From IMG/VR virus record IMGVR_UViG_3300023110_001943, positions 77,497 through 141,496 of that record: a DNA stretch of 64,000 nucleotides. One strand, written 5' to 3'. A program made the translations under genes and the position numbers. Of the stretch, positions 16,404-57,085 are shown one piece after another (position 1 is the first letter of the stretch; each line of letters opens with the position of its first letter). This stretch comes from a virus. The notes under the pieces were generated by a model. It saw nothing but the letters and a program-made list of their open reading frames with translations, ran no database searches and had not been told where the DNA came from.

Positions 16404-16407
16404 AATA

Positions 16408-20559: not shown

Positions 20560-20710
20560 CCCTTAAAACATTCTGAGGTTTAGGCTGTTCAATTCTTTGT
20601 TTAATTAATCGTTCAATCAACCCACTTTTCGAATATCCATGTTCACAGCAATACTCGTGTAGTTCTTTATACAATTCTCTTTTTATTTGTATTGTAGTAT
20701 ATTTTCCCAT
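20549..20710 (-). CDS. Ribbon-helix-helix DNA-binding protein (53 aa, not in ORF track)
   Basis: Manual translation MGKYTTIQIKRELYKELHEYCCEHGYSKSGLIERLIKQRIEQPKPQNVLRVKT: alternating beta strand, helix, G-x-S turn, helix. Fills the gap between nuclease and tail fibre. Confidence 0.7.
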   Translation of the reverse strand: MGKYTTIQIKRELYKELHEYCCEHGYSKSGLIERLIKQRIEQPKPQNVLRVKT

Positions 20711-20712
20711 AG

Positions 20713-20788
20713 TATATAGATTTCTATATAATATATATTAACAAAAAAAAGTTTAATATATTTATATTAGTAATTGGGAAATCTATAT
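20713..20788. promoter_or_regulatory. Divergent control region with palindrome, 11-bp inverted repeat and ATATTTATAT (20758-20767)
   Basis: TATATAGA-TT-TCTATATA at 20713-20730; ATATAGATTTC (20714-20724) is the reverse complement of GAAATCTATAT (20778-20788). Confidence 0.55.
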
Positions 20789-28063: not shown

Positions 28064-29233
28064 ATGAAAATAAATTACAAAGATAGAATTAACGAATATC
28101 TTAAAGGCGATGATATCGATGCGGTGGAACTTGCAAGATTGATGAATAAAATTCTTGATAAGGATAAACAATTAAAAGTAGTTACTGAAAAGAAAAATCA
28201 CATAAAAATTTTACTCACCACAGGTGCTGGTAATACTATTCAAGGTGGAGCAGATATTTGGGTAAATCATTTTTTAAACTTAGTGTGGCCTTTACTTCCA
28301 AATAAAAAAACTTGGAAACTTTTAATTGACTCTAAAAGACCTACTCAGTTCGACCCAAAATCATTACCAAAAGGATTATTATATCATTTTCATTTTGATG
28401 ACCCTGATTTAACAGATAGGTGGTTGGATGAGTGTGAAGAAATTCATTCACTACATTCTCATTATCACAAGAGAGACCATATTTGGCATTGGGAAGATAA
28501 ATTTAAAACTATTTTTGTTCACGCATATCCACGAGAAATGTCAGAGGTGGTAGAAAGTATACCCGAACTTAAAAGATTACAATTTAATACCAAAGTAGAT
28601 GTAAAGTGGTATGAAGAATATTTAATGACATTCAAAAAAAGAATTTGGATTGGAAATAATTATTCTTCTTTATTTGATGAATTTCCGAACTATACTTACA
28701 ATATTCCAAATTTTTATGAATTTAAAAACAATATTCCAATTACAACTCATAGAGAAAACGGTAAGGTTGGATTTGCTTCGAGAATCGAATCGAGAAAGTG
28801 TATTCATTGGATGAATGAATTAGAAGGATATGCTTTAACATCTCAAATGGATTTACAAAACCTTAGAGATACTACAACTTATTCATTACCAAGAATTAAT
28901 TTATTTCAATGGAACCCAGATATTCATCATAATTTTATGTTAAAAAATTGGGGTATATTTCATGGAGCATATTTCAAAGAACCATTTGGATATTCTATTT
29001 TTCAAGCCGTTGATTATGGTAAAGTTCCAATTATAAATAAAGATTGGGCCGAAGAAGTAGAATATGATTATCGAGCTTCTACCATGAATGAATTTAAAAA
29101 GATTGCTAAAAAAATACAAACAGACCCACAACAAAAGATAGAAAAAAACTTTAACAATCTAAAAGATTACATGAAAAAGTTTGATAATAAAGAAGAATGG
29201 GTTGATAAAATTAGAAGTACTATTTTAAAATAA
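28064..29233 (+). CDS. GT-B fold (GT4-like) glycosyltransferase
   Basis: 'QGGADIWV', 'FASRIESRK', 'EPFGYSIFQAVDYGKVPI'. Confidence 0.7.
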   Translation: MKINYKDRINEYLKGDDIDAVELARLMNKILDKDKQLKVVTEKKNHIKILLTTGAGNTIQGGADIWVNHFLNLVWPLLPNKKTWKLLIDSKRPTQFDPKSLPKGLLYHFHFDDPDLTDRWLDECEEIHSLHSHYHKRDHIWHWEDKFKTIFVHAYPREMSEVVESIPELKRLQFNTKVDVKWYEEYLMTFKKRIWIGNNYSSLFDEFPNYTYNIPNFYEFKNNIPITTHRENGKVGFASRIESRKCIHWMNELEGYALTSQMDLQNLRDTTTYSLPRINLFQWNPDIHHNFMLKNWGIFHGAYFKEPFGYSIFQAVDYGKVPIINKDWAEEVEYDYRASTMNEFKKIAKKIQTDPQQKIEKNFNNLKDYMKKFDNKEEWVDKIRSTILK

Positions 29234-29244
29234 TATATTTTTAT

Positions 29245-29254
29245 ATATTTATAT
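29245..29254 (+). promoter_or_regulatory. ATATTTATAT putative late promoter (variant ATATTTATAA at 29274-29283)
   Basis: Intergenic motif at the head of the overlapping glycan operon. Confidence 0.55.
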
Positions 29255-29362
29255 ACGTTTGGTAAAAATTCGTATATTTATAATGGGGGTAAGGGGGTAG
29301 TGCAAGACACTAAGACAACTAACAAAATAAAAATAAAATTAGACACCTATAACTAAAGCACT

Positions 29363-30148
29363 ATGGGTAGTATCCTAAACTACAATCTCGTAAAAGAATA
29401 TCTTACAAACAACTTCACTATAAAAAAAGATGTTAATGGTAAAGAGTACAAGGAACTTACGCCTTTAAAATATCGTTGGACTCATGGTGCAACTGATAAA
29501 CATTTAGGCGATGGGTTATTAATTTATTCTACAATCCAATACATGAGAGCAAAAACTTGTGTATGTTTAGGAAGTGGTGGTGGATTCATTCCAAGAATCA
29601 TGTCTCAAGCAAGAATGGATTTACATGACCAAGAAATATTTGAAGGAAATCAACAAATGGAATGGGGTGATATTGGTACAACAATTCTTGTAGATGCTGA
29701 TAATGGAGTTGGTGGATTTACTGATTGGACTGAAAAAGATTCTTTTTTGAGAACACATTTTCCATGTAGAATTATTTTAGATACTACTGAAAATGCTTAT
29801 TATAACTATTTTGTAAAAGAAGATATTAAGATTGATTATTTACATATTGATGCTGGACATTCATATGAAGATGTAAAAAATGATTTTGAATTATATTCTA
29901 AAATACTTTCACCGAGTGGTATTATTTCTATACACGATACTGATGAGAGTTATGAAAAAGAACACATAGTTACAAATGATGTTTCGGAACAAAAACATCA
30001 TGATGAATTTGCAAATGGCCCATCTAAATTAATCAAAGAATTAAAAGAAAATAACAATTGGGAAATTTTCAACTTTTTTAATAATGGTATATTTAAAAGT
30101 AGACCTTCTTCTACTGGTCTAACATTTGTTCAGAGATGCAAAAAATAA
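29363..30148 (+). CDS. Class I SAM-dependent methyltransferase (Methyltransf_24-like)
   Basis: 'CLGSGGG', 'IDYLHIDAGHSYEDVKNDF', 'L.P.GII.IHD'. Confidence 0.8.
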   Translation: MGSILNYNLVKEYLTNNFTIKKDVNGKEYKELTPLKYRWTHGATDKHLGDGLLIYSTIQYMRAKTCVCLGSGGGFIPRIMSQARMDLHDQEIFEGNQQMEWGDIGTTILVDADNGVGGFTDWTEKDSFLRTHFPCRIILDTTENAYYNYFVKEDIKIDYLHIDAGHSYEDVKNDFELYSKILSPSGIISIHDTDESYEKEHIVTNDVSEQKHHDEFANGPSKLIKELKENNNWEIFNFFNNGIFKSRPSSTGLTFVQRCKK

Positions 30149-30978
30149 ATTTGGTTACAGTTGTTGGACACAACACAACTCTTCTACCACATATGTTAAA
30201 TTATTACAAAGATATTGTTGATAATATCTATGTAGTTGTGTATCGTCAAAACGAGTTAGATGGTATTTTAGAAGAAGTAGTAAATTTTGGTATCAAACCA
30301 TATAAAGTAGTTACAGAGCCAAAATTTAATTGGGAAAGAGTAACAGAATTATATAATGAGGTAAAACAAACCAAACCAGAAGAATGGTGGGTGGTTTCGG
30401 ATGATGATGAACTTCATGTTTACCCAAAACCCTTAAGGGAACTTATCACAGAATGTGATGAGAATGGTTGGGAATTTATCACAGGAGGTTTCCTCGATAG
30501 GATAGGAGAGGGAGGTGAGTTTCCTTTGGTAACAAAAGAAACTAATATTTGGGAATCGTTTCCACTTGCAGGATTTTTTAGATACCCTATGAGTGGAGCA
30601 ATGCCAAACAAATGTTGTGTAATGAAAGGTTCGATAAATGTAACACCAGGTCAACACTTTGCTGTAATTGGTGATACTGATACTTGGAGAGAACGAGGAT
30701 GGAATCATCCTAAAAGATATCCTATTGAAAAAGGATTAATTCAAGTTCATCACTTCAAGTGGGATTCTACAATCTTGAAAAGATTAAAAGAAGTTTCGGA
30801 AACTAAAGAAGATTATTCTTATTGGAAAGAGTACAAAAAAATGTATAGAAATATACAAATAAATGATTGGAAAATTAATATTAATAATCCTGCGTTTATG
30901 ATTAAAAAAATGAATAGTAAAAACTACGATGAATATTCAGAGTGGGAAAACTTATCTAATGTTATAGTAAAGATATAA
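30136..30978 (+). CDS. GT-A fold (GT2-like) glycosyltransferase
   Basis: 'LLPHMLNYY', 'WWVVSDDDEL', 'PGQH', 'VHHFKW'. Confidence 0.75.
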   Translation: MQKINLVTVVGHNTTLLPHMLNYYKDIVDNIYVVVYRQNELDGILEEVVNFGIKPYKVVTEPKFNWERVTELYNEVKQTKPEEWWVVSDDDELHVYPKPLRELITECDENGWEFITGGFLDRIGEGGEFPLVTKETNIWESFPLAGFFRYPMSGAMPNKCCVMKGSINVTPGQHFAVIGDTDTWRERGWNHPKRYPIEKGLIQVHHFKWDSTILKRLKEVSETKEDYSYWKEYKKMYRNIQINDWKININNPAFMIKKMNSKNYDEYSEWENLSNVIVKI

Positions 30979-32435
30979 TGGATAAATTAGCAATAATAGT
31001 TCCTTACAGAGATAGAGAAGAACATTTAAATGTATTTGTTCCACATATCCACGAATTTCTTAAAGATAAAGGTATTCGATATTCTATTTTTATTATTGAA
31101 CAATCTGATGATAGACCATTTAATTATGGAAAACTTTGTAACGCTGCAGTAAAAGAAATACCTGAAGAATATACTTACTTTGCTTTTCATGATATTGATA
31201 TGTTACCAATGAATGATGAGTGTGATTATGCTTATCCAGAATCTCCAACACATCTTGCAACCAATGTAGAAGTTCATAACAATGAATTACCTTATCCACA
31301 ATACTTTGGCGGGGTGGTTGTAATTAGTAGAGAAGATTTTGAAAATGCTAATGGTTATTCAAATGAATATTGGGGTTATGGATTTCAAGATTTGGATTTA
31401 CTAAAAAGATTAGAAAGAAGTGGTGCTTATCTTGAAAAGTTTTATGATTTAAATAATGTTTATTCAACTTACGATGAATTAGATATTTTACCATACAGAA
31501 TAGAAAATGTAAAAATTACTTCAGATAAAAAAGGTCAAACAATTCATTATAACAAATTTTCAAAAACAAATTACATATACGGCCCAATAAATCCTATATT
31601 AGAATCTGTTTTAGAAAATTCTTTTTCAGTATCTTTTTGGTTTAATGATTCAGCAAAAAGAAAAAATAAAAAAAACTTAGTTACCTTTGAAGGATGTGAT
31701 ACTGGTGTATTTTTAAGCAAAGGAAATGAACTAATTTTTCAAATTTGGGATAACTTAGAAACCCATACTGAAATTCTACTATCTTATGCAAGAAATCGTT
31801 GGAATCATTGTACATTCTCATATGATTCAGAAAATAAAAAAATAAGATTAACGATTAATGATAAAAGTGAAGAAATCCAACTCAATGATGGTTTCCAATT
31901 ATATGATTACAAAAAACATTGTATAAAAATATCCGATGGAGAATCACAAGTAGATATATCAAATGTTCTTTTGTATGATGTATATTTTGATTCATCATCT
32001 ATACGAATTTTATGTGATGAAGGAAACTTTGCTTTAGATACATTAGAAACAAATTTAGGAATTACACCATCTTTAAATTTAAGATATGATTCATTATATA
32101 AAAATAATATTTTGTTAGATTTTGGAAAATGTAAAAATCATATAAAAGTTTATGATTCATTGGATGTAAATAATATGAGTATAATTCCTAATGAATTGTA
32201 CTTACCAATAAGAACAGATGGTGTTTATAAATCATTACAACATAAAGGAGATAAAAAGATTATAGAAAAATATTATAAGTATAATCCTGATATAGAAGAA
32301 AATGCAGATATCTTTTTTGAAGATGTATTGAAAAATAACTTAGATTATAAATCAATTGGATTGAATACATTAAATTATAAGGTTTTACATAAAGAACAAA
32401 AGAAAACATATGAACTTATTAGAATTGTTACATAA
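30978..32435 (+). CDS. GT7 (beta-1,4-galactosyltransferase-like) with inserted LamG-like domain, copy 1
   Basis: 'IIVPYRDRE', 'FNYGKLCN', 'FHDID', 'YFGGV', 'NGYSNEYWGYGFQDLD'; LamG-like 'FSVSFWF..WNHCTFSYD'; C-terminal 'SLQH..GLNTLNY'. Confidence 0.8.
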   Translation: MDKLAIIVPYRDREEHLNVFVPHIHEFLKDKGIRYSIFIIEQSDDRPFNYGKLCNAAVKEIPEEYTYFAFHDIDMLPMNDECDYAYPESPTHLATNVEVHNNELPYPQYFGGVVVISREDFENANGYSNEYWGYGFQDLDLLKRLERSGAYLEKFYDLNNVYSTYDELDILPYRIENVKITSDKKGQTIHYNKFSKTNYIYGPINPILESVLENSFSVSFWFNDSAKRKNKKNLVTFEGCDTGVFLSKGNELIFQIWDNLETHTEILLSYARNRWNHCTFSYDSENKKIRLTINDKSEEIQLNDGFQLYDYKKHCIKISDGESQVDISNVLLYDVYFDSSSIRILCDEGNFALDTLETNLGITPSLNLRYDSLYKNNILLDFGKCKNHIKVYDSLDVNNMSIIPNELYLPIRTDGVYKSLQHKGDKKIIEKYYKYNPDIEENADIFFEDVLKNNLDYKSIGLNTLNYKVLHKEQKKTYELIRIVT

Positions 32436-32763
32436 TAAAAAAGTTGTTGTTAAATTAGAAAATATAGCAACACAAATACAAGATTTGACAGAATCAGATA
32501 ATGATTTCTCAAATGTTGTACCTTCCGTTGTTATGATGTTAGAAATGATATTAAACGAAAATGGAAGAAGTACGGTATCAAAAGATGTACTCGTACAAAA
32601 AGAATATGAAGATTTTTTAAAAGATTCGGATATTAAAAAGAAAAACTTTGAAGCTTATTTAAATTCTTCATATCAAAATAAATCTACAAGTGAAAGAAAA
32701 CTAACAGATTATTTAAAAAAGGAATTAATTAAAAACAAAAAGTTGAACTATGGCAACATCTAA
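32410..32763 (+). CDS. Hypothetical protein
   Basis: 117 aa ORF overlapping both neighbours in the operon. Confidence 0.5.
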   Translation: MNLLELLHNKKVVVKLENIATQIQDLTESDNDFSNVVPSVVMMLEMILNENGRSTVSKDVLVQKEYEDFLKDSDIKKKNFEAYLNSSYQNKSTSERKLTDYLKKELIKNKKLNYGNI

Positions 32764-33013
32764 AAAAAGTGAAGAACAAGTTCTTCAAGAAAGAGCGGTA
32801 AAGGCTCTTGAATCTATTGCAACATCACTCGGTGATATTAACGATTGGATGTATGAGTTAGAAGCTGATATGTGGCAAGAAAGATTAGAGTGGTACTTAA
32901 ACGAGTTCTACCAAATCGCTAAACAAAAAACAGTAGGAACATCAAACAGACCAGAAAGAGGAAGTGAGAGAATCCAAGAGACAACAGAGACTCAAGAAGA
33001 AGATAACTCATAA
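32750..33013 (+). CDS. Hypothetical helical protein
   Basis: 87 aa ORF in the operon. Confidence 0.55.
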   Translation: MATSKKSEEQVLQERAVKALESIATSLGDINDWMYELEADMWQERLEWYLNEFYQIAKQKTVGTSNRPERGSERIQETTETQEEDNS

Positions 33014-34412
33014 ACTTGGTATAATCGTTCCATATAGAGATAGAGAACAACAACTCAAAAGGTTCTTATCTCATATGAAAGAATATATCAAGGATATTGA
33101 TTACGAAATCTTCATCGTAGAACAGGCAGATGATAAACCTTTTAACAGAGGTAAACTTCTGAATGCAGGATATAAGTACGCCGTTGATAAAGGGTGTGAT
33201 TATTTTGTATTTCATGATGTTGATATGTTGCCTGAAGATGTAGATTATTCGTATTCAGAAAAACCACTTCATCTTGCAACTCACTTACAAGAACACGATT
33301 ACGAAACAACTTTCTTTGATTACTTTGGTGGTGTAACTATGTTTACCAAAGAAGATTTTAAAACCATCAATGGATTCTCTAACGAATATTGGGGATGGGG
33401 ATTCGAAGATGATGATTTATTGATAAGATGTGTTGAATCTGATTTAGATATTGATAAGGATGAAACAGGAAGTGGTGAAATAAATGAAGTTGAAGTTTTT
33501 AAACTAAATGGAAACAATTCATATATCGAATTATCAAATAAACAAAAAACAAATTTGTTAGAAGATGAATTTTCAATATCTGTTTTAGTAAAGCCAGAAA
33601 ATGTAAAGTTAAGTGAAAATAAAGAATATGATGAATTTTCAATAATATCAATACCTGGATTTAATATGGGATTGTTCTACAACTCTTTCAGAAGATTTTT
33701 TTCTCAAATGTATGATGAGAATAAAAAATCATATTCTGTTACAAGTGATATTTTAGGAGAAAGGTGGGTTCATTTAACAATGGTTTATAATACCGATGGA
33801 AATTTAAGTTTATATATTGATGGTACATTGGTTGATTCGGTACAAATAAATTCTAACATCCTACAAGTACCTTCAGATAAAATATATGTTGGTGCACCAA
33901 ATAATAAAAAAACAAATAAAAGTTTCTTTTACGGGTTGATATCAAATATCGAAATATACGATATAGCATTAACTTCTAAAGAAGTAATGGAAATATCAAA
34001 AAATACTACAAAACCAAAACTAAGAAACTTTGGTGATTTCAAATCAAGTGAATATCTACTTTCTCAAATTATACCAAGTTTATCCACAAAGGATACCTGT
34101 GTTGATATAACAGGAGAATTTGATGTTTCTTTAAATAATATATATTTATATAAAGATAAGATATCTTTTAAAAGTTTCTTACCAAAGCCACATAGAAGAA
34201 AGTGCAGATTTAAATCACTTAAACACAAAAACAATTCCTCAATAGGAAATAAGTGGGTTCATTCTCAAACGAGAAAAAATCAAATCAAGTATTACAATGA
34301 AGTTAGAAACAATTTTGATAATTTTAGAATAGATGGTCTAAATACATTGAGATTTGATGAAATAAAAAAAGAAGAAAAGGGATTAGTTACAAAAATTTCA
34401 ATACAATTATGA
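32964..34412 (+). CDS. GT7 with inserted LamG-like domain, copy 2
   Basis: 'FNRGKLLN', 'FHDVD', 'NGFSNEYWGWGFEDDD'; LamG 'WVHLTMVY..LYIDG'; C-terminal 'SLKH..DGLNTL'. Start codon uncertain (GTG 32964). Confidence 0.85.
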   Translation: MRESKRQQRLKKKITHKLGIIVPYRDREQQLKRFLSHMKEYIKDIDYEIFIVEQADDKPFNRGKLLNAGYKYAVDKGCDYFVFHDVDMLPEDVDYSYSEKPLHLATHLQEHDYETTFFDYFGGVTMFTKEDFKTINGFSNEYWGWGFEDDDLLIRCVESDLDIDKDETGSGEINEVEVFKLNGNNSYIELSNKQKTNLLEDEFSISVLVKPENVKLSENKEYDEFSIISIPGFNMGLFYNSFRRFFSQMYDENKKSYSVTSDILGERWVHLTMVYNTDGNLSLYIDGTLVDSVQINSNILQVPSDKIYVGAPNNKKTNKSFFYGLISNIEIYDIALTSKEVMEISKNTTKPKLRNFGDFKSSEYLLSQIIPSLSTKDTCVDITGEFDVSLNNIYLYKDKISFKSFLPKPHRRKCRFKSLKHKNNSSIGNKWVHSQTRKNQIKYYNEVRNNFDNFRIDGLNTLRFDEIKKEEKGLVTKISIQL

Positions 34413-34819
34413 TGAGCATGTACAAAACAGGTGTAATTGCAGGTAACTTTGATGTTATTCATCCTGGTTACATAAAAATGTTTAAAGAATGTAAATCATA
34501 TTGTCAACAATTTGTAATACTTCTTCATGTAGACCCATCAATTGAAAGACCAGAAAAATTAAAACCAATTCTAACCAAAGAAGAAAGAACAGAAATTCTA
34601 ACTTCAATTAGGTGGATAGATTCAATTGCATATTACACTTATGAAAAAGAGTTGGTAGAATTATTAAAAGGATTACAACCAGATATCAGATTTTTAGGAG
34701 ATGATTATAGAGGTAAAACATATACAGGTTTCGAATTAGATATACCAATTCACTATTTAAATAGAGACCATGGTTGGTCAACAACCAAGTTTAAAAAACT
34801 AATTGCAGATTCAATATGA
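34409..34819 (+). CDS. Cytidylyltransferase (TagD/RfaE-like HxGH family)
   Basis: 'GNFDVIHPGY', 'ER.EIL', 'LGDDY', 'WSTT'. Confidence 0.8.
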   Translation: MMSMYKTGVIAGNFDVIHPGYIKMFKECKSYCQQFVILLHVDPSIERPEKLKPILTKEERTEILTSIRWIDSIAYYTYEKELVELLKGLQPDIRFLGDDYRGKTYTGFELDIPIHYLNRDHGWSTTKFKKLIADSI

Positions 34820-36261
34820 AATTAGGAGTTTGTGTACCATACAGAAACAGAGAGGCTCATCTAAAAGAATTTGTACCAAAAATTAGTAAGTACCTTGATT
34901 CTCAAGGAATTGATTATTGTATTTATTTTGGACACCAAGTTGATGATAAATTATTCAACAGAGGAGCAACCAAAAATATCGCTGCAAAACACGCATTTGA
35001 AGATGGTTGTGATTATATCGTTTGGCACGATATTGATATGATACCAGAAGAAGGTGGTGGGGCAGATTATAGTTTTCCAAAAGAAAACCCAAGACATATT
35101 GCAACTGAAATTTCACAAATGAATTATCAACTAAAGTATGAAGAATACTTCGGTGGTGCAATTGTTTTCTCAAAAGAACAAGTTGAAAAAACCAATGGAT
35201 ATTCCAATGATTATTGGGATTGGGGAATGGAAGATGATGATTTGTTTTGGAGATGTGTTCTTGAAGGATATGTAAATGATACTTACTTAGATTATACAAA
35301 ACAAGAGAAAGATTTTATATCATTTAATGGTAAAGATTCTTATGTACGGATTCCATGTACTCGTTCTCTTCGTAACTTAACTTCTCGTTCACATACAATT
35401 TCAGTATTGGTACGAGCACATCAACAAGAAGAAAAAGTACCTGTTTTCTTAATTGGAGATACTGAAAGAAGATTTGTAGAATATCCGATATTTCGTAGAC
35501 CAGGTTATGATTATGGTATATCTTATAATAACTCAAGAGCTTATACCGCACAACTTTGGAACAACCAAAGAGAGCATCTTTATCAATGGATGAAAAGATA
35601 TGAAAACCAATGGACTTGGATTACACTTGTTGTTGATAGTAACAATGTTCATTTTTATATGAACGGAAAGGAATCAGATGCTAGATGGGGAACAGGAACA
35701 CACTCACCTTTACATTTTGAAGGAATGTTAAAAAGATATGGTAATGTTGATTATTATTTAGGAACTACAACTTCTGTATCTGATGATGAGCCTTCTAAGT
35801 GGTTTAAAGGAGATATTGCAGATGTTAGAATGTGGAATAGAGCACTAACATCTGATGAAGTATCTGAAATACCAAATACAATTTTAGATGATGGGTTATA
35901 CCTACATTACGATTTCAAAGATGGGTTAGTGTTGGATAAAACCAACAATGGAAACGATGGTGTTTCATATAATTGTGAATATAAAAAAGAAAAAGTTGAA
36001 ATTCCTTTTACAAAAGTACCACACAGAGTAAATGGTAGAATGTTTTGCTTACCTCATGAAGATGAAGGGTTAGTAAATATAAATGGTATCGATAAATGGG
36101 CTAAAGGTGAAACAACAGCAAGAAACGAAAGAAGGTTTGTAAAAGAAATGCAACAAGGAAATTGGGATTACAAATCTGATGGTATTAATCAAGTTAAATA
36201 TGAGTTGGTTAGTATCGAAGAAATTTCACCAAAAGCAAAATACATAAACATTAAGTTGTGA
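34816..36261 (+). CDS. GT7 with inserted LamG-like domain, copy 3
   Basis: 'VPYRNRE', 'FNRG', 'WHDID', 'WDWGMEDDD'; LamG 'FKGDIADVRMWNRAL'; C-terminal 'CLPH..DGINQVKY'. Confidence 0.85.
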   Translation: MKLGVCVPYRNREAHLKEFVPKISKYLDSQGIDYCIYFGHQVDDKLFNRGATKNIAAKHAFEDGCDYIVWHDIDMIPEEGGGADYSFPKENPRHIATEISQMNYQLKYEEYFGGAIVFSKEQVEKTNGYSNDYWDWGMEDDDLFWRCVLEGYVNDTYLDYTKQEKDFISFNGKDSYVRIPCTRSLRNLTSRSHTISVLVRAHQQEEKVPVFLIGDTERRFVEYPIFRRPGYDYGISYNNSRAYTAQLWNNQREHLYQWMKRYENQWTWITLVVDSNNVHFYMNGKESDARWGTGTHSPLHFEGMLKRYGNVDYYLGTTTSVSDDEPSKWFKGDIADVRMWNRALTSDEVSEIPNTILDDGLYLHYDFKDGLVLDKTNNGNDGVSYNCEYKKEKVEIPFTKVPHRVNGRMFCLPHEDEGLVNINGIDKWAKGETTARNERRFVKEMQQGNWDYKSDGINQVKYELVSIEEISPKAKYINIKL

Positions 36262-36288
36262 TATATATTAATATAAAGAAAAAAATAC

Positions 36289-40839: not shown

Positions 40840-41410
40840 AAGTATATTTTATAAAGAAAGAAGCTGGAATGATTTTCACTTCTACAATGGCAGTGTTCTT
40901 AATGATATAAAAATAGTACAACCTTCAATATATCATGAATATAGGGGTAGTATTTCTACAACATATCATTCAGATTACTATGATAGATTATTACCTGCTA
41001 ACGAAAGAAACGAAGGATTGCAATTTAAACACGATAGATATTCAAAATCTAAGTTCGCGGTTTTAAGGGGATTGCACTATGATGATAAAACTTGGAAATT
41101 AGTAAGTTGTTTACATGGTAAAATTTATCTTGTAGTATTAGATGTTAGACCTCACTCATTAACTTATGGTAAATGGGAATCATTTATAATTTCACCTGAA
41201 ACGGGTACACAAGTTCTTGTACCGCCTATGTTTGCAAATGGACACTTTGTAATGGAAGATGATTCTATTTTTCATTATAAGATGGCATATAAAGGTGAAT
41301 ATAATGACGAAAATAAACAAAAGACAATTTTATTTAACGATAAAAGATTTAACATAGATTGGCCAGTACAAAATCCAATCTTATCAAAACGAGATGCAAA
41401 TGGAAATTAA
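40826..41410 (+). CDS. rmlC: dTDP-4-dehydrorhamnose 3,5-epimerase family (cupin)
   Basis: 'YRG', 'VLRGLHY', 'KLVSC..G.I..V.LDVR..S.TYGKW', 'ID WP'. Confidence 0.85.
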   Translation: MALNRSIFYKERSWNDFHFYNGSVLNDIKIVQPSIYHEYRGSISTTYHSDYYDRLLPANERNEGLQFKHDRYSKSKFAVLRGLHYDDKTWKLVSCLHGKIYLVVLDVRPHSLTYGKWESFIISPETGTQVLVPPMFANGHFVMEDDSIFHYKMAYKGEYNDENKQKTILFNDKRFNIDWPVQNPILSKRDANGN

Positions 41411-42038
41411 AAATTTAAATTATCACGAAGATAGATGGTCAGAAGGCAATTATTCAAAAGAGGATTTAATCAATTTTGAAGATGATATCATTTCTCATTG
41501 GGAAAATGGAGAAATTACAGGTCCTATACATTTATCAAATGGAAACGAAGAACAACTAATAGAAATATTCAAAAAAATATCTCCAACTGATTGGGTATTT
41601 TCAACTTGGAGGTCTCACTATCATGCACTTTTACATGGTGTGGAAAAAGATAAACTAAAACAAAAAATTCTTGATGGTAAATCAATCACAATTGTAGATA
41701 AAGATTCCAAATTCTATGCATCTGCAATTGTAACTGGTACTTTACCTATTGCATTGGGAGTTGCTAAATCAATTAAGTACAATGGTGGTGATGATAAAGT
41801 TTGGGTATTTTTGGGTGATATGGCATTTGAAAGTGGAATCTTTTATGAAGTTCACAAATATGCAAGAAACTATGATTTGCCACTTCACTTTGTGGTAGAA
41901 GATAATGGTGTATCTACAAATACACCAACATTGGATACATGGAATGGGATTCAGAGAGATGTACCAGAAGATGTGATATATTATAAATACGAATCTAAGT
42001 ACCCACATTATGGAACGGGAAAATGGGTAGTATTTTAA
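41394..42038 (+). CDS. TPP-dependent E1-alpha-like (transketolase N-type) subunit
   Basis: 'IHLSNGNE', 'WRSHYHAL', 'LPIALGVA', TPP motif 'GDMAFESG...VVEDN'. Confidence 0.85.
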   Translation: MQMEIKNLNYHEDRWSEGNYSKEDLINFEDDIISHWENGEITGPIHLSNGNEEQLIEIFKKISPTDWVFSTWRSHYHALLHGVEKDKLKQKILDGKSITIVDKDSKFYASAIVTGTLPIALGVAKSIKYNGGDDKVWVFLGDMAFESGIFYEVHKYARNYDLPLHFVVEDNGVSTNTPTLDTWNGIQRDVPEDVIYYKYESKYPHYGTGKWVVF

Positions 42039-43264
42039 ATTTTATTAAGTTACCAAATACCAAATATAATGGTGAGGGGTTAGTTCATAAAAAAGATGAT
42101 AATGTTCCATTGTTTCATTTATCTATTTTTGAAAATTGGCTAACAGGCACCTCATATCAAATTAGTAATGAGTATCAAAAAGGTAAAAAAAACATTTTTT
42201 ATATTGAATGTTTTGAAGGATTAAAAAATTTTTATATAAAAGATGATTATACAAAGAAAACTATTTTAGATACACTACCAAACTCGTTATTAAAAAAAAT
42301 ACAAGAAGGTAAGTGTAAAATCCTTCTAACATCGCTTTCAGAATCGATTACATTTGATTACGAAATAATAGATAATATTGAAAAAGAACTAAAAAGATTT
42401 GATATTAAAAATGAATCTTTAATCTGCATGGAATCAAACTTTAGATATACACAAGAAAAAACAAAATTTCGATTTTTTGGTTCAAATCACTATTTTATAC
42501 ATTCTGCAGAAACATTTAATTTATTAGATGGTGGAATTACTGATTTGGGTTACCCAATCTCAGTACCAAATATATCAGAATGTAAAAATACAAAAAGAAA
42601 TAAACATTTTTTGTGTTTTATGAGAAACACACAACGATTTCACAGACATTGGTTGTTGTTATATTTAAGACATGAAAACTTATTAGATAAATTTATATTA
42701 TCCGCAATAAGAAAAATAGATAAACAATATAGTATAGATACACAAGGTAGTAAACTATCTCATTTAACAAAATATGTAGATGAGATGAATGAAAAAATTC
42801 CAATTGAGATTGATACACATGATTTTCAAAATAAAATGGGATTTTCTACTCTAAATTGCTACAGAAAAAAAGAATATTTAGATTCTTATATTCATATTGT
42901 AACTGAAACTTCATTTGAAGATGATATATTATTTTTTACTGAAAAGATTTCAAAACCAATAATTGGATTACAGCCATTTATTGTTTTTTCCAATAAAGGA
43001 TTTTTAAAACAATTAAAAGAATTTGGTTTTAAAACTTTTGATAAAATTATAGATGAATCTTATGATGAAGAAGAAGATAATGTTGAGAGATTTTTAAAAA
43101 TTACAAATGAAATTAAAAAATTATCTTCATTATCATTAGATGAGTTACATGAATTATACATTTCTGTTTTAGATATATGTATATATAACAGAAACCATCT
43201 TAAAAAAATATACAAAGAAGATATGATGGATAAAAATATTAAGGTTATAGAAAATGAGTGGTAA
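42023..43264 (+). CDS. Putative GT-B glycosyltransferase (VTET/TEK/GFKTF family), copy 2
   Basis: 'FLCFMR..R.HR', 'YLDSYIHIVTET..FFTEK..KP..GFKTFDKIIDESYD'. Confidence 0.55.
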   Translation: MGSILNFIKLPNTKYNGEGLVHKKDDNVPLFHLSIFENWLTGTSYQISNEYQKGKKNIFYIECFEGLKNFYIKDDYTKKTILDTLPNSLLKKIQEGKCKILLTSLSESITFDYEIIDNIEKELKRFDIKNESLICMESNFRYTQEKTKFRFFGSNHYFIHSAETFNLLDGGITDLGYPISVPNISECKNTKRNKHFLCFMRNTQRFHRHWLLLYLRHENLLDKFILSAIRKIDKQYSIDTQGSKLSHLTKYVDEMNEKIPIEIDTHDFQNKMGFSTLNCYRKKEYLDSYIHIVTETSFEDDILFFTEKISKPIIGLQPFIVFSNKGFLKQLKEFGFKTFDKIIDESYDEEEDNVERFLKITNEIKKLSSLSLDELHELYISVLDICIYNRNHLKKIYKEDMMDKNIKVIENEW

Positions 43265-44192
43265 AACAATATTAGTAACAGGTTGTAGTGGTTTAGTTGG
43301 AACTCACTTGGTAAACAAACTTCTACAAAAAGAATACATAGTGGTTGGTGTAGATATTAAAGAATCTACAAACTTACCACAAAATGAAAATTTTACATTT
43401 TTAAACTTAGATTTAAGAGATGTTGAAACGGTTGAAGCTCTTTTTCAAGAATTTGACTTTTATGGAGTTGTAAATGCATTTGGAATCAAAGGTTCACCAA
43501 TCAGAGCAAAAGAAAGACCATTGGATTTTCTTGAACCATCTATAAAAGTTAATACAAATATTATAGAAAACTCTCACAAACACAATTGTTGGTTAGTATT
43601 TATGAGTTCGGTTGGCGTTTATGAACCAGCAGAAGAATTTGTAGAAGATACAGTATGGAAAACACTTCCATCACCAAACGATTGGTTTCCATCGTGGAGT
43701 AAAAGAATACCAGAAATTTATTTGGAGGCATATAAAGTACAACACAATTGGGAAGATTGGACAATCGTAAGACCAGCAAATATTTTTGGTGAATATGATA
43801 ACTTCGGTGAAGGTGCAACTGTAATCGGAGCAACTTGTAGAAAGGTTTATGAATCCGATGGTGAGATTGAAGCATGGGGAGATGGAACACCAACAAGAGA
43901 TTTCATATACGCTGGAGATGTTGCAGATGGTTGTATCAAATGTTTAGAAGATAAATTACATATAACAACTAACTTAGGTAGTGGTGAAGAAATATCAATC
44001 AAAAGAATGATTGAAACTGTTGCTAAGGTTAGTGGTAAAGAAATAAAAATAAATTGGGATACTTCCAAACCCAATGGTGATATGAGAAGAAGAATGAGTA
44101 CTAAGATACAAGAACAATTCGGATTATTACCAAAACTTGGATTCGAAGAAGGTATAAAAGAAACATACAAATATTATGAACAAAACAGATAA
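43254..44192 (+). CDS. GDP-fucose-synthase-like extended SDR (catalytic Tyr absent)
   Basis: 'TGCSGLVG', 'RPANIFG', 'WGDGTPTRDFIY', 'WDTSKPNG'; PSWSK replaces YxxxK. Confidence 0.8.
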   Translation: MSGKTILVTGCSGLVGTHLVNKLLQKEYIVVGVDIKESTNLPQNENFTFLNLDLRDVETVEALFQEFDFYGVVNAFGIKGSPIRAKERPLDFLEPSIKVNTNIIENSHKHNCWLVFMSSVGVYEPAEEFVEDTVWKTLPSPNDWFPSWSKRIPEIYLEAYKVQHNWEDWTIVRPANIFGEYDNFGEGATVIGATCRKVYESDGEIEAWGDGTPTRDFIYAGDVADGCIKCLEDKLHITTNLGSGEEISIKRMIETVAKVSGKEIKINWDTSKPNGDMRRRMSTKIQEQFGLLPKLGFEEGIKETYKYYEQNR

Positions 44193-45168
44193 AATTTTAG
44201 TTACAGGTGCAAGTGGATTTATTGGTTCACGATTAATCAAGATGTTATACGAAAATGGGTACACCAACCTTAGAGCAACATCTTGGAGTAGAGATTTAAG
44301 AAACGATTTCGAAGGATGTGAAAATGTTGAGTTTTTAAAAGGAGATTTAAGAACTGCAGAATTTTGTGAAGAAGTATCAAAGGATGTAGATGTTGTATTT
44401 CATGCAGCAGCAAATACTTCAAATGCTTTAGATACAAAAGTGAATCCACTTCTTCATGTTACTCCTAATGTTGAAATGAATACAAACCTTATGGAACAAA
44501 GTTGGAGAAACAAAGTTCGTAAGTTTATGTTTATTTCTTCTAATACAACATATCCAGATGTTGGTGAAGAGTATTGCACAGAAGATATGAATGTACAAAC
44601 ACCAAACATCTATCCTGTTTACAAAGCAGTGGGTTGGATGAAGAGATATGGAGAAACTCTTTGTGAGTTCTTTTCAAATCAAATCCATGACCCAATGCAA
44701 TGTGTAATTATCAGACCATCTAACTCGTTTGGACCAAATGATAAGTACGATTTTGAAAAGTGTCATGTAACACCTGCGAATATCAGAAAAGTTGCAGATA
44801 ATTTAAATCCAATTCCACTTTGGGGCGATGGTACTGAGGTAAGAGATATCATCCATGTTGATGATATGGTTAGTGGATTTATCACAGTTGCAGAAAATGT
44901 GGATACCTATGATATCTACAATGTATGTTTTGGTAAAGGATATACTGTAATGGAAGTGTTAGAACTTATCAAAGAGATTGAGGGGAACGACAATCCAATT
45001 GAGTTTGTTAACAATAAAGCACCGATGATTCCAAAGAGATTATTATCAAATGAAAAATTATTAAAACTTGGTTGGAAACCAAAATACGATTTAAGAAGTG
45101 GATTAGAAGATGCACTTCGTTGGTATAAAGAAAACAAAGACCAGTTTGACCCAAATTCAAGACCGTAA
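44176..45168 (+). CDS. GDP-fucose-synthase-like extended SDR (catalytic Tyr absent)
   Basis: 'TGASGFIG', 'RPSNSFGPND', 'WGDGTEVRDIIHVDD'; VGWMK replaces YxxxK. Confidence 0.8.
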   Translation: MNKTDKILVTGASGFIGSRLIKMLYENGYTNLRATSWSRDLRNDFEGCENVEFLKGDLRTAEFCEEVSKDVDVVFHAAANTSNALDTKVNPLLHVTPNVEMNTNLMEQSWRNKVRKFMFISSNTTYPDVGEEYCTEDMNVQTPNIYPVYKAVGWMKRYGETLCEFFSNQIHDPMQCVIIRPSNSFGPNDKYDFEKCHVTPANIRKVADNLNPIPLWGDGTEVRDIIHVDDMVSGFITVAENVDTYDIYNVCFGKGYTVMEVLELIKEIEGNDNPIEFVNNKAPMIPKRLLSNEKLLKLGWKPKYDLRSGLEDALRWYKENKDQFDPNSRP

Positions 45169-46307
45169 TGATTTCAACAATGATATTTGCAGGTTGTTCT
45201 TATACATGGGGACAAAGTTTGCATTTATATGGTGGTTTTAATGATGATAAACATCCTCGTGATGGGTTTTTCTATGACAAATTATTATTACCACATCATT
45301 ATCAATATAATGTAGATAATAGATTTGCAACAAAAGTTGCTGATTACTTTGGAAGAAAACCAATCGTGGCTGCTAGGAATGGAAATTCAAATCCATTAAT
45401 GGTTACATGGATTTATCAAAAGTTAAAAGAAAATCCAAACACCGATTGTATTATAGTTCAGAGTACAAGTTTTGCAAGAGGATATAATCAACTTGGAGAT
45501 GATAACAAACAAATAGATGAATTTAATAAATTAATTAAGTTTGTAGAAGAAAAAGATATCTTAATAAGATTTATTCACATGGATTTGGGAGGTGAGCATT
45601 CTACATTAGAACTTTCAGAAGAAATTAAAAGTAGAACTATTTTATATGATAATAAATTGGATTTTTATCATACTATGTTAGTAGTAAACGAAAAAAGAGA
45701 TTATAGAACAATTGGTGCGGATTTCTCAAATAGTGATACACATTTTAATCTTAAGGGTCATGAGTATTTAACAAAAATTATTATTGAAGAATTAGAAAAA
45801 AGTAATTACGAAAATGTTAAAAAAATAGAATTACCAAAGTTAGTAAAAAATAAAATTTTTAATAAGAATGATTTTGATTCATTATTGGATGTTGTAAAAC
45901 ATAATGATAAAAAACAATATTTACTATATTCTGTTGATAAAAATAATGTTGCTTATGATGAAGATTTGACTGATACTAATTTAATTGATGATGTAATCAA
46001 AAAATTACAAAATTTTAAATTATTAAATATTTGGTTAATGAAATATCCACCAAATTATAGTTTAGGATACCATCAAGATTCGACACACGATTCAAACAGA
46101 TATGTTTATGAAATACAGCCATCAGATAATTCATTTTTTGAATTTTTTAACTATAATAAAATATCTAAAATAGAAAATATTAATGATGATATATTATACA
46201 TAGGTAATACTTTTCATGATTTTAAAAATAATAGCAAAACAAATACAAGAATATCTGTGGTATTCGATACAAAACTAAAAATTAATAAAATAACAGATAT
46301 ATTATGA
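45168..46307 (+). CDS. SGNH-like domain fused to a putative 2OG-Fe(II)/cupin oxygenase domain
   Basis: N-terminal 'FAGCSYTWG', 'GNSN', 'DTHFN..GH'; C-terminal 'YHQD...FHDFKN..TRISVVFD'. Confidence 0.55.
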   Translation: MISTMIFAGCSYTWGQSLHLYGGFNDDKHPRDGFFYDKLLLPHHYQYNVDNRFATKVADYFGRKPIVAARNGNSNPLMVTWIYQKLKENPNTDCIIVQSTSFARGYNQLGDDNKQIDEFNKLIKFVEEKDILIRFIHMDLGGEHSTLELSEEIKSRTILYDNKLDFYHTMLVVNEKRDYRTIGADFSNSDTHFNLKGHEYLTKIIIEELEKSNYENVKKIELPKLVKNKIFNKNDFDSLLDVVKHNDKKQYLLYSVDKNNVAYDEDLTDTNLIDDVIKKLQNFKLLNIWLMKYPPNYSLGYHQDSTHDSNRYVYEIQPSDNSFFEFFNYNKISKIENINDDILYIGNTFHDFKNNSKTNTRISVVFDTKLKINKITDIL

Positions 46308-46852
46308 GTAAACCAGAATTTACACCATATGTAGATGCACTTACAGAAGCTATGAAACTTTGTATGGGCAATCCATCTACAATTTTTATTGGCCAACAGA
46401 TTGTGTATTACGGAAACCCAATGTCAAAAACCATTGAAGGTTTACCAAAAGATAGAATGATTGAAACTCCAGTAATGGAAGAAACTCAAATGGGAATGAC
46501 AATGGGTCTTGCAATGACAGGACACCAAGTTGTTACTTTCTACCCAAGATGGGATTTTCTTATTCTTGCAGCAAACCAACTTATTAATCACTTGGATAAG
46601 TTAGAAGCGATGTCTGATGGTGAGTGGAAACCAAACGTAATTGTAAGAGTTGGTAAAGGTTCTGATAAACCATTAGACCCTGGCCATCAACACAAAGCAA
46701 ACTATACAGAACCATTCAAACAAATGTTAACAAATGTTACCATTCAAGATTTAAAATCATCAGAACAAATATTGCCTGCTTACAAAACAGCTTTATCTAA
46801 AGGTGGAATACATATATTAGTAGAATATCCTGAATTGTATTATGCAAGTTGA
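46304..46852 (+). CDS. TPP-dependent E1-beta-like subunit (pyrimidine-binding domain only)
   Basis: 'Y.DAL.EAM', 'IETPVMEETQMGM..GLAM.G', 'DFLILAANQLIN', 'GHQH'. Confidence 0.85.
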   Translation: MSKPEFTPYVDALTEAMKLCMGNPSTIFIGQQIVYYGNPMSKTIEGLPKDRMIETPVMEETQMGMTMGLAMTGHQVVTFYPRWDFLILAANQLINHLDKLEAMSDGEWKPNVIVRVGKGSDKPLDPGHQHKANYTEPFKQMLTNVTIQDLKSSEQILPAYKTALSKGGIHILVEYPELYYAS

Positions 46853-48248
46853 AAAAATAAAAAATCTGAATATAATTTATGATTTTAGAGGACCAAATGA
46901 CTGGATTCCTAATGCATTAAATTACTATTATTCACAAAAATACTTTGAAAAAGATTTCGTATCAGATTTTGAATTACAAAATCATTTTTTTAAAAATTTT
47001 GTACAACCATCTGTATTTAATGTATTTTTAAATTCAGACCATTTATTGTTTAATAAATTAACAATACATGATTACTTAAATAATACAAGATATAAAAATG
47101 ATGTGTGTTTTTATCTCGTAGAGCCATTTGGTAATTTTAATCATTTTTTAGGAAAACAATTTGGAGGATTTTCAGAAAGTTGTTTTATAGATTTTATTTC
47201 GAAAGATAGTTTAAATAACATTAAAACAAATGATAATTTTTATCTTATTATAAACTATGGCACTGAGGGAGTATTTCCTATTGATTTTTTCTCTAATTTG
47301 TATGAAGTATTAGAAAAATATGAAATACCAGAAAATAAAGTAATTTTATTATCATCCGCAGTTGATATTGAAACATTACATAAAAAAGTAAGAAACCATA
47401 ATCCGAAAAAAGTAAAAATGGTTTACTGGCCATGGTCTTTACGATTTAAATCAAAAGAATTAAAAGAGATTTATGATGGGGTTGATTATAAATTTTGGGA
47501 TGATATCGACCAACAAAATAGTATTGTTAAATCTGAAGATTTAGATTCAAAAATTCGTAAAACAAAGTTTTTATTGATGAATAGAAGATTAAGACCTCAA
47601 CGAATGATTTTGTTATGTTTGTTAGGTTTAGATTTTATAAAAGAAAACTTGGTTTCTTATGATATAAGTTTATTTGATAGAGAAAATGATTTATCATTTT
47701 ACTTACATCATGCAGGTGATGTTATAGGTGAGGAACTTTACGAAAAATCGTTTGATATTATAAACAATAAAAAAGAAACTATTGATTATGATGATATAAA
47801 TTCTGTTTGGGGATTTAATTTTGAAAACAAACAACCTTACTTAGATTCATATATTAATATTTGTACCGAAACAAATTTTTATGAAGATGGTTTATACCTT
47901 TCAGAAAAAACTTGGAAACCAATAGGACATTTACAACCATTTATACAAGTTAATAAAGCTGGTGCATTACAAGAATTACGAAATATAGGTTTTAAAACAT
48001 TTTCACCTTTTATAAATGAAGAGTATGATAATGAACATAATGATGCGTTAAGAATAAAAATGATTTCTGATGAAATACTAAGATTAAATTCGTTATCAAC
48101 TGAAGAAATACATAATTGGTATGATTCAATTAAAGATATACTTATACATAATCAATCTTTACTTTTTAAATATGCTGAAAGTAAACAAGATACTGAAAGA
48201 GAATTTATAACAAACTTAAAAAATTATGTGGTTGATAAAAAAAATTAA
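46842..48248 (+). CDS. Putative GT-B glycosyltransferase (VTET/TEK/GFKTF family), copy 3
   Basis: 'FLLMNRR.RPQR', 'YLDSYINICTET..LSEKTWKP..QPFI..GFKTF..INEEYD'. Confidence 0.55.
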   Translation: MQVEKIKNLNIIYDFRGPNDWIPNALNYYYSQKYFEKDFVSDFELQNHFFKNFVQPSVFNVFLNSDHLLFNKLTIHDYLNNTRYKNDVCFYLVEPFGNFNHFLGKQFGGFSESCFIDFISKDSLNNIKTNDNFYLIINYGTEGVFPIDFFSNLYEVLEKYEIPENKVILLSSAVDIETLHKKVRNHNPKKVKMVYWPWSLRFKSKELKEIYDGVDYKFWDDIDQQNSIVKSEDLDSKIRKTKFLLMNRRLRPQRMILLCLLGLDFIKENLVSYDISLFDRENDLSFYLHHAGDVIGEELYEKSFDIINNKKETIDYDDINSVWGFNFENKQPYLDSYINICTETNFYEDGLYLSEKTWKPIGHLQPFIQVNKAGALQELRNIGFKTFSPFINEEYDNEHNDALRIKMISDEILRLNSLSTEEIHNWYDSIKDILIHNQSLLFKYAESKQDTEREFITNLKNYVVDKKN

Positions 48249-57045: not shown

Positions 57046-57085
57046 AAACAAACAAATAAAGGTTATAATTTAAATTAGGAATAAA

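Follow-up and report, generated by a model that had tools for sequence, protein, structure and literature searches.

A 20-kb phage gene cluster predicted to encode a soluble glycan-assembly system, with virion proteins as candidate acceptors

The 64,000-nucleotide stretch of viral DNA analyzed here (the window) represents bases 77497–141496 of the 141,496-bp IMG/VR record IMGVR_UViG_3300023110_001943, which has an estimated completeness of 76%. Between positions 28064 and 48248, it harbors 21 open reading frames (ORFs, g1–g21), all on the + strand, whose predicted products together constitute a phage-encoded, wholly soluble glycan-assembly system with a fixed core and a variable periphery. Eight glycosyltransferases (GTs) of four types were recognized: three GT7 enzymes with an inserted LamG domain, one GT4-like GT-B enzyme, three paralogous GT10-like GT-B enzymes, and one weakly assigned GT-A enzyme. 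A first-pass annotation, made from the DNA letters and a list of ORFs, had counted up to eight GTs of four types; the count was right, with one of them (g3) weak. The acceptor of the glycan may be a virion protein, first of all the tail fiber encoded just upstream, a reading that is put forward tentatively and given slightly less than an even chance.

The phage, which is uncultured and marine, is a distant T4-like myovirus, as seen from its baseplate wedge, primase, SbcC-like nuclease, large terminase, and T4-type portal genes. Its large terminase (TerL) shares 56% identity with that of Flavobacterium phage vB_FspM_immuto, 55% with that of Microcystis phage Mel-JY01, and ∼32% with that of Prochlorococcus phage P-SSM3. 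The G+C content is ∼30% across the window and 24–30% in the cluster, which is no outlier in this respect. Adjacent ORFs of the cluster overlap at 18 of the 20 junctions, and the only gaps are of 129 nt (g1/g2) and 27 nt (g9/g10), so that the "about 21 mostly overlapping genes" of the first-pass annotation are exactly 21 co-directional ORFs. On the 5′ side, the cluster is flanked by a gene for a 2221-aa tail-fiber-like protein (20787..27452, + strand) and two small ORFs. This protein, in which Ser and Thr make up 24% of the residues, is the candidate acceptor. On the 3′ side lies a gene for a 1754-aa multi-domain protein, followed by the terminase and then the portal. The earlier placement of the cluster between tail fiber and head genes was found to be correct on the tail-fiber side, while the immediate 3′ neighbor is the multi-domain late protein and the terminase and portal genes lie only beyond it. 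The C-terminal part of the tail fiber (window 26283–26690, residues ∼1845–1968) showed a weak Intein_splicing (Hint) Pfam match (2.9e-5, below the cut-off). Collagen-like repeats of the fiber were considered as a target of hydroxylation or glycosylation and were dropped, as the protein contains a single 18-residue G-X-Y run.

The most distinctive members of the cluster are g4 (30978..32435, +), g7 (32964..34412, +), and g9 (34816..36261, +), designated paralogues a, b, and c, each of which combines the Glyco_transf_7N, Glyco_transf_7C, and Laminin_G_3 domains. Matches to both GT7 Pfam halves (PF13733 and PF02709) ranged from 1e-16 to 1e-24, and the three proteins are 27–30% identical to each other; the GTG start codon of g7 is backed by a conserved N-terminus. 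A profile of g7 orthologues matched beta4GalT1 at 4e-45, with query positions 6–156 mapping to residues 64–219 and query positions 435–473 to residues 245–283. Between residues 219 and 245, where beta4GalT1 has ∼25 residues, the profile has ∼280 positions that include the LamG domain. The insertion site is located between the EDDD helix and the segment with the metal-binding His and the flexible loop; g4, g7, and g9 accordingly do not have the contiguous single-domain GT-A catalytic fold. The motifs FNRG, HDVDMLP, and WGWGFEDDDL, His421 in the counterpart of the metal-binding loop segment, and DGLNTL/DGLNxL at the C-terminus were found to be retained, and H84-D85-x-D87, W143-G-W-G-x-E-D-D-D151, and H421 were invariant in alignments of the GT7-LamG proteins. 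The DVD and WGWGxEDDD motifs, the metal-ligand His segment, and DGLNxL are common to animal beta-1,4-galactosyltransferases (beta4GalT1, beta4GalT7) and the phage proteins. The phage proteins, however, carry the LamG/ConA-like insert, occur as three paralogues per phage, and have neither a membrane anchor nor a stem. On the basis of these alignments, g4, g7, and g9 are assigned to a variant architecture of GT7 and are predicted to be ancient paralogues. In bacterial genomes proper, matches were limited to the first ∼150 residues and correspond to GT7 without the insertion, and a GT7 with an internal LamG domain appears to be new to description. A faint Laminin_G_3 match (E 0.009) was also observed in a second giant protein of the window (1768 aa, 5985–11291), which may be another fiber or baseplate protein with the lectin fold of the GT7 inserts.

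The remaining GTs were identified largely from predicted structures and motifs. Searches of PHROGs, NCBIfam, and Pfam gave no family for g1, g5, g6, g11, g12, g16, g19, or g21, and PDB sequence searches gave nothing significant for g1, g11, and g19 as single sequences or for profiles of the g16, g3, and g19 families. The g1 product (28064..29233, +) had 684 metagenomic relatives, none of them with a Pfam domain. Its AlphaFold2 (AF2) model, built on an alignment of 22 relatives, had a predicted local distance difference test score (pLDDT) of 90.7, and in Foldseek its best matches were the GT4 enzymes HepE, PimA, and GlgM at 2e-8, among 404 PDB chains at E ≤ 1e-3. Along with the EX7E-like motif EPFGYSIFQ, the model identifies g1 as a GT-B glycosyltransferase of GT4-like type. 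In a language-model search, an AGT-family cluster was among its neighbors (0.97, rank 26). The g16 product (42023..43264, +) gave an AF2 model with a pLDDT of 90.6, a Foldseek probability of 1.0, and a VIA-align Z of ∼11 over 260–300 residues. Its structural matches are tied at Z 10–12 and include FUT9, Helicobacter pylori FucT, T4 AGT/BGT, serine-rich-protein glycosyltransferases, and other GT-B families. The products of g12 (38471..39880, +) and g21 (46842..48248, +) share with g16 a C-terminal half of ∼250 residues, in which they are 31–44% identical to it. The modeled structure assigns g16 to the GT-B fold, and the same fold is assigned to g12 and g21 by paralogy. For these three proteins, the pointers to GT10 are a TEK-type motif in the alignment and a language-model lead for g16 (0.79); Pfam gave no match, and the FucT structures are tied with others. 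The fourth type is represented by g3 (30136..30978, +), in which a GT2_4 match at 24.4 bits (cut-off 27.5) and an SDDDE motif invariant in the alignment point to what is probably a GT-A glycosyltransferase. Three more copies of the C-terminal domain of g12/g16/g21 and one of the SGNH-like N-terminal domain of g19 are present outside the window, elsewhere in the record (∼2175–2940, 20428–20780, and 56949–57665), and glycan enzymes are therefore not confined to the cluster.

A hydropathy scan of the cluster proteins showed no plausible membrane helix, the sole hydrophobic stretch being in the Rossmann region of the g13 product. Over the 141-kb record, the same scan gave three hydrophobic segments per ORF at most, i.e., no polytopic membrane protein. 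The scan is crude and covers 76% of the genome, and within this part it indicates that there is no flippase, polymerase, ligase, Gtr protein, or polytopic initiating transferase. The first-pass remark that no flippase, polymerase, or membrane enzyme was evident held good for both the cluster and the record. This is a difference from the phage seroconversion systems (GtrABC, Oac, and Wzy-type), which have polytopic membrane proteins of a kind that the scan did not find in this record.

Synteny was counted in 57 related IMG/VR loci with full 6-kb flanks. The genes g10, g6, g2, and g3 were present in 57, 56, 55, and 55 of these, respectively, and two to three GT7-LamG copies were found in all; g1 was found in 42 of the 57 and often lies beyond the flank. 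Apart from g1, these genes form a rigidly syntenic seven-gene core consisting of a methyltransferase, the GT-A gene, a GT7-LamG gene, a small helical protein, two more GT7-LamG genes, and a radical S-adenosylmethionine (SAM) enzyme. The methyltransferase g2 (29363..30148, +) is a class I SAM-dependent enzyme (Methyltransf_24, 7.9e-11). The helical protein g6 (32750..33013, +) has 87 aa, is conserved at ∼60–90 residues among relatives, and in almost every locus lies directly 5′ of a g7-type GT7-LamG gene, the exception being L013. The radical SAM enzyme g10 (36289..37710, +) has an N-terminal twitch domain and matched the N_Twi_rSAM family NF033640 at 4e-101 and 339 bits, against a cut-off of 170. 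Its cysteines comprise C141-x3-C145-x2-C148 (CNFKCSYC) and the N-terminal Cys 23, 26, 45, 87, and 90.

Relatives are encoded on at least 560 IMG/VR stretches, and the g7 family abounds in metagenomes, with 2459 matches, all to unnamed proteins, among the 8000 metagenomic candidates scored. In two of the relatives, G001 and G002, the cluster occupies the identical slot, from tail fiber to polyprotein, over 23–26 kb. Conserved between these and the window are g1–g10 and a 3′ sugar module comprising g13, g14, g15, g17, g18, and g20, with identities in the module mostly of 58–92%; in one relative, a few of these genes have diverged or are missing. Gene content in the middle is variable, with six tandem or two N-twitch radical SAM genes and two to four GT10-like genes. 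In G002 (L009:11446–18141), the six tandem radical SAM paralogues, which are 22–52% identical to g10, lie between GT7-LamG genes, where the window has one. Tail-fiber homologues precede the cluster in relatives: the core follows tail-fiber genes in the three lineages where upstream genes are readable, and ORFs upstream of the cluster in L009 and L032 matched PHROG tail-fiber families.

In the cellular genome collection, full-length GT7-LamG proteins were found only on contigs of metagenome-assembled genomes (MAGs), with G+C contents of 27–48%. The labels of the GTDB MAGs with these contigs (L029–L037) were Flavobacteriales, Pelagibacterales, Gammaproteobacteria, Anaeromicropila, Fibrobacter, and Spirochaetes. 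The core neighbors g2, g3, and g10 were present in the Flavobacteriales, Pelagibacterales, Gammaproteobacteria, and Anaeromicropila contigs, and the Fibrobacter and Spirochaete contigs carried GT7-LamG alone. The one contig examined in depth, a 248-kb "Flavobacteriaceae" contig, has a T4-like TerL gene on board and a PHROG tail-fiber gene (7e-35) directly 5′ of the module; it is a phage genome that was binned into a MAG, and the remaining MAG contigs with GT7-LamG are probably phage as well. Among GenBank phages, megablast of the whole 20 kb gave no match, and tblastn of g7 and g16 against 50,697 GenBank phage records gave none either. By tblastn against GenBank phages, g1 matched only one, an uncultured metagenomic 484-kb phage, and g10 matched only one, the Ralstonia jumbo phage RsoM2USA. 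In that cultured 344-kb phage (L188, MG752970.1, 205342–230694), the N-twitch radical SAM protein is 38% identical at 97% coverage, and its gene lies 3′ of a 7.6-kb ORF among co-directional "hypothetical" genes, one of which encodes a short-chain dehydrogenase/reductase (SDR). As judged from these searches, the key families are absent from cultured phages, except for the radical SAM enzyme in this one. The seven-gene core, the N-twitch radical SAM expansion, the minimal split thiamine pair described below, and the restriction of the module to phages appear to be undescribed.

Ten copies of the upstream motif TATTTATAT were counted in the window, each of them on the + strand, and nine stand just 5′ of genes. 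The genes preceded by it include the tail fiber (motif at 20759), the 1754-aa protein (a head polyprotein), the portal-containing operon, the gene after the portal, and g2. Across the record as a whole, 23 copies lie on the + strand and two on the − strand, with none in the first 34 kb. Ahead of g2 lie two copies (29246..29283, +), namely, TATTTATAT at 29246 and the near-copy TATTTATAA at 29275, and the earlier observation of a motif before the main operon was thereby substantiated: the motif of the tail-fiber, portal, and head-protein genes is also that of g2. Since g1 lacks its own copy, it is probably transcribed together with the tail fiber. PHROGs searches on the genes that follow TATTTATAT elsewhere in the genome identified none as structural, and the label "late" was not strengthened by them. 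The T4 late promoter TATAAATA was rejected as the operative signal: just two copies occur on the + strand, both inside genes, and the operative motif is the reverse-complement-like TATTTATAT. Scans for sigma-70 promoters and terminators inside the cluster revealed no excess over the shuffled expectation. The primase gene and its neighbor (window 16404–16465 and 15710–15755) have TATATTTG-type or similar boxes instead of TATTTATAT. The box TATATTTG resembles the Bacteroidota −7 box, TAnnTTTG, and the boxes suggest two promoter classes one base apart, TATATTTG and TATTTATAT. Such TAnnTTTG-like promoters, along with the binning of the MAGs, point to Bacteroidota/Flavobacteriia as possible hosts.

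A possible course of glycan assembly can be outlined from these genes. A nucleoside diphosphate (NDP)-sugar of the host would be converted by 4-keto chemistry (SDR dehydratase, RmlC, and SDR reductases) into a deoxy sugar, to which the minimal E1alpha/E1beta pair might add a two-carbon branch. Methylation, acyl editing, and hydroxylation of the product would follow, and up to eight transferases would assemble the glycan. The conserved core (the g1 GT-B, the methyltransferase, the GT-A-like enzyme, three GT7 enzymes, the helical protein, the nucleotidyltransferase, and the radical SAM enzyme) would build a fixed glycan core on a phage-specific acceptor, and the more variable tailoring set, which consists of the three GT10-like GT-B enzymes, three SDRs, RmlC, the split E1alpha/E1beta enzyme, and the SGNH/2-oxoglutarate (2OG)-oxygenase fusion, would make the deoxy sugar and attach outer residues. 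Expression would be co-timed with that of the structural genes, and the acceptor would be the Ser/Thr-rich tail fiber or another virion protein. Three observations favor such an acceptor. The core is conserved across contigs of diverse G+C content and binning, which favors a phage-encoded acceptor over host-specific lipopolysaccharide (LPS), nothing for lipid-linked export is present, and the operon carries the upstream motif of structural genes. As in virus-encoded virion glycosylation, virus-encoded soluble GTs and tailoring enzymes are sited with structural genes. Of the earlier proposal of cytoplasmic late-stage virion glycosylation, the parts that stood are the soluble nature of the enzymes, their co-directional position among structural genes, the motif common with these, and the lack of membrane components for undecaprenyl phosphate (Und-P) export. 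A more specific version, in which large environmental T4-like and jumbo phages have in common a system found only in phages whose seven-gene core builds a conserved glycan core on tail fibers or other virion proteins, the LamG domains read the acceptor, the small helical protein acts as a cofactor, and swappable tailoring genes diversify the outer residues, is considered possible and is held with less confidence than the virion acceptor as such.

Several points weigh against a virion acceptor. GTs without membrane helices could act on undecaprenyl diphosphate (Und-PP)-linked intermediates of the host, with host initiating enzymes and flippases completing the process. The adjoining tail fibers are 32–57% identical or unmatched and hence far more variable than the GT core, so that a specific enzyme–substrate fit to the fiber is not evident. 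The timing argument draws solely on the genes that TATTTATAT precedes, and the motif also stands ahead of a helicase-like gene and of another radical SAM gene. The assignment of g3 is weak, those of g11 and g19 draw on weak matches or motifs, and the record is 76% complete. Comparable islands have been read in the literature as host-surface or DNA modification, without experiments (PMC7029224, PMC12801897).

Remodeling of the host envelope is the alternative that is taken most seriously, although it is regarded as unlikely. The soluble GTs and sugar enzymes would work on the inner side of the membrane, making or modifying a host glycan on a lipid carrier (LPS O-unit, capsule, or general O-glycan), the host initiating transferase, flippase, and ligase would finish it, and the phage would thereby prevent superinfection or keep its progeny from sticking to debris. 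The gene families are indeed those of O-antigen and capsule loci (RmlC, SDRs, GT2, GT4, and TagD/RfaE-like), peripheral GTs require no membrane helix, the middle of the cluster varies among relatives in the manner of surface-glycan loci, and the island lies in a hypervariable "host recognition" region comparable with those of pelagimyophages (PMC7029224) and cyanomyophages (PMC12801897). However, the hydropathy scan of the 141-kb record revealed no initiating phosphoglycosyltransferase, flippase, polymerase, ligase, or Gtr-type protein, and the core remains rigid on contigs of 27–48% G+C from different bacterial bins, in contrast to the host specificity of surface glycans. In true polysaccharide loci of bacteria, it was the bare GT7 catalytic part that matched, and no full-length GT7-LamG protein was found. 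In a lytic cycle, an operon with the structural-gene motif would also be expressed late for an enzyme set that converts the surface. If the host surface were nevertheless the target, this would be the first lytic phage to import a near-complete glycan pathway without export machinery.

A product that is neither part of the virion nor of the envelope appears improbable to a greater degree. It could be a free or small-molecule-linked oligosaccharide, or a glycosylated injected or internal phage protein or host cytoplasmic protein. The combination of a split E1 pair, a radical SAM enzyme, a 2OG oxygenase, a methyltransferase, RmlC, and SDRs recalls oligosaccharide natural-product pathways, presumably those of orthosomycin-type clusters. 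The up to six tandem radical SAM paralogues of one relative are more typical of small-molecule or peptide tailoring than of the glycosylation of proteins, and the downstream neighbor encodes a multi-enzyme polyprotein. The cluster shows no sign of a carrier, a precursor peptide, or an aglycone pathway, however, g6 being helical and not Ser/Thr-rich, and the conserved adjacency to tail-fiber genes would be left unexplained. Hypermodification of DNA, in which an oligosaccharide on a modified base would protect against restriction in the manner of T4 AGT/BGT, is the weakest alternative and is considered very improbable. Phage GTs that add diverse glycans to DNA have been reported (Pyle et al., 2024, as cited in PMC12619734). 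The g1 and g16 products share the GT-B fold with T4 AGT and BGT, both of which are among the structural matches, and the AGT-family cluster mentioned above is a language-model neighbor of g1. On the other hand, AGT and BGT are generic GT-B neighbors and not the top structural matches, and g1 has no AGT or BGT Pfam match. The sole thymidylate-synthase-family (PF00303) gene in the record is a canonical ThyA (1e-77 to a solved thymidylate synthase) that keeps the Asn of FNIAS; dCMP hydroxymethylases have Asp at this position. As the only thymidylate-synthase homologue, it weakens the case for DNA glycosylation, and no hydroxymethyl-pyrimidine synthase of the diverged thymidylate-synthase type was found in the record, from which 24% of the genome is missing. 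Moreover, the cluster is placed among structural genes, with their motif, and not among nucleotide-metabolism genes, and eight GTs with deoxy-sugar tailoring are far beyond known DNA glycans. The phage ThyA (L017:1486–2502; record 63112–64128) has a ∼40-residue insertion between its two conserved halves (query 196–237).

To our knowledge, glycan-gene islands beside tail-fiber genes of marine T4-like phages have been noted for two decades, with the target never assigned. The "LPS/cell-wall" islands of pelagimyophages (PMC7029224) and of the cyanomyophages P-SSM2, S-SCSM1, and S-SCSM2R (PMC12801897) are likewise those of marine T4-like myoviruses and, similar to the present cluster, combine GTs, NDP-sugar epimerases, RmlC, and a TagD-like enzyme beside tail-fiber genes in a partly hypervariable region. 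The present cluster differs in the GT7-LamG trio and in the GT10-like and g1 families, which had no tblastn match in cultured GenBank phages, and in the rigid seven-gene core defined here, which is not described in PMC7029224 or PMC12801897. Virus-encoded glycan clusters whose products coat the virion are established for Megavirinae fibrils and chlorovirus capsids (PMC10117803, PMC9614988). These viruses also use their own soluble GTs and rare-sugar pathways in the cytoplasm, independently of host membrane machinery, and their clusters are clade-specific and variable. The enzyme families are different, however, and the host here is bacterial and not a protist. Glycans on the capsid and tail(-tube) of mycobacteriophages are summarized in PMC12619734 (citing Freeman et al., 2023), and in these phages the GT genes adjoin structural genes, as here, in two-GT systems, compared with eight GTs in 20 kb. 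The T4 alpha- and beta-glucosyltransferases are phage GT-B enzymes and are among the structural neighbors of g1 and g16, but they are not the best matches and have no family-level sequence match. T4 DNA glucosylation also differs from the present case in that the cluster stands in a structural-gene context and the 76%-complete record has no hydroxymethylase that could be found.

The cluster defines a rigid phage-specific core that extends over the IMG/VR stretches counted above and thousands of metagenomic proteins, and its conservation pattern, together with the lack of a membrane component, argues for a phage-encoded acceptor. If virions are glycosylated by it, the view of how abundant marine phages recognize their hosts, how stable their particles are, and how they are subject to grazing or immune recognition would have to be revised. 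The system would then be a bacteriophage counterpart of the glycan coats of chloroviruses and mimiviruses, shaping adsorption, stability, or recognition in the sea. It would also add new enzymes: GT7 with an internal LamG domain, and uncharacterized radical SAM and minimal thiamine enzymes for sugar chemistry.

Among the remaining genes, those for sugar tailoring were identified by Pfam and NCBIfam, although none of the sugar enzymes of the cluster reaches an equivalog cut-off (NCBIfam). The three SDRs, RmlC, thiamine-diphosphate pair, cytidylyltransferase, methyltransferase, and radical SAM enzyme named in the first-pass annotation were all matched by these databases. The three SDRs are g13 (39847..40839, +), an NDP-sugar epimerase/dehydratase with an orthologue in G002 that is 85% identical, g17 (43254..44192, +), which is GDP-fucose-synthase-like at a score below the cut-off, and g18 (44176..45168, +), an epimerase/dehydratase/reductase. 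Between the first two lies g14 (40826..41410, +), an RmlC-type NDP-4-keto-sugar 3,5-epimerase (RmlC, 9e-39). The thiamine pair is formed by g15 (41394..42038, +), a truncated E1alpha-like thiamine-diphosphate-binding (PP) domain with a GD...DN motif (E1_dh, 1e-15; orthologues 85–92% identical), and its partner g20 (46304..46852, +), a truncated E1beta-like pyrimidine-binding (PYR) domain in which the PYR-domain Glu is present (E1beta/Transket_pyr, 4e-12, NCBIfam; orthologues 81–84% identical). These proteins, of 214 and 182 aa, respectively, have one domain each and scores far under the family cut-offs. The arrangement, with distinct genes for the E1alpha-like and the E1beta-like part amid RmlC and SDR genes, resembles that of the two-carbon branched-sugar enzymes of the pyruvate-dehydrogenase E1 type (AviB1/AviB2-type) in NDP-sugar pathways; g15 and g20 differ from these in being truncated to single domains and in being four genes apart.

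The g19 gene (45168..46307, +) encodes what appears from its motifs to be an SGNH-hydrolase-like N-terminal domain (GCSFTWGQ, NGGSN, and DxH) fused to a 2OG/Fe(II)-oxygenase-like C-terminal domain (HQD...H...RIS, seen as HxD...H...RxS in full-length relatives). Ten distant relatives of the N-terminal domain gave no Pfam match; in the G001 cluster, separate genes have a weak GDSL match below the cut-off and a clear 2OG-oxygenase Pfam match. The SGNH/oxygenase fusion suggested earlier corresponds to this gene and is backed by motifs, and the LamG protein suggested earlier corresponds to g11 (37707..38474, +), a weakly assigned 255-aa LamG-like protein. The latter assignment draws on a tblastn match to the LamG part of the GT7-LamG protein of L013 and on the terminal motif FWAGDISYFKIIDEYV; BLASTP of g11 against g9 gave no significant match. 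The g5 gene (32410..32763, +) is an ORF for a poorly conserved 117-aa protein. A reading of the cluster as a pathway for ribosomally synthesized and post-translationally modified peptides, raised by the tandem radical SAM genes, was rejected, as it has no Ser/Thr/Cys-rich precursor candidate and g6 is a conserved helical protein. The g8 product (34409..34819, +), of 136 aa, is cytidylyl/adenylyltransferase-like (CTP_transf_like), with RfaE domain II and TagD as its nearest relatives. In its sequence GNFDVIHPGY, the second His of the HxGH motif is replaced by Tyr (HPGY), which is invariant in seven orthologues, and the ISTT-type motif is kept as HGWSTT. The middle of the G001 cluster (L002:19582–20936 and L027:51–6205) encodes a GDSL hydrolase, two DUF5672 proteins, a 2OG-Fe(II) oxygenase, a short DegT-type aminotransferase, and a PfkB kinase. 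This kinase lies beside the RfaE-II-like orthologue of g8, a possible sign of a heptose-type or another sugar-1-phosphate activation route.

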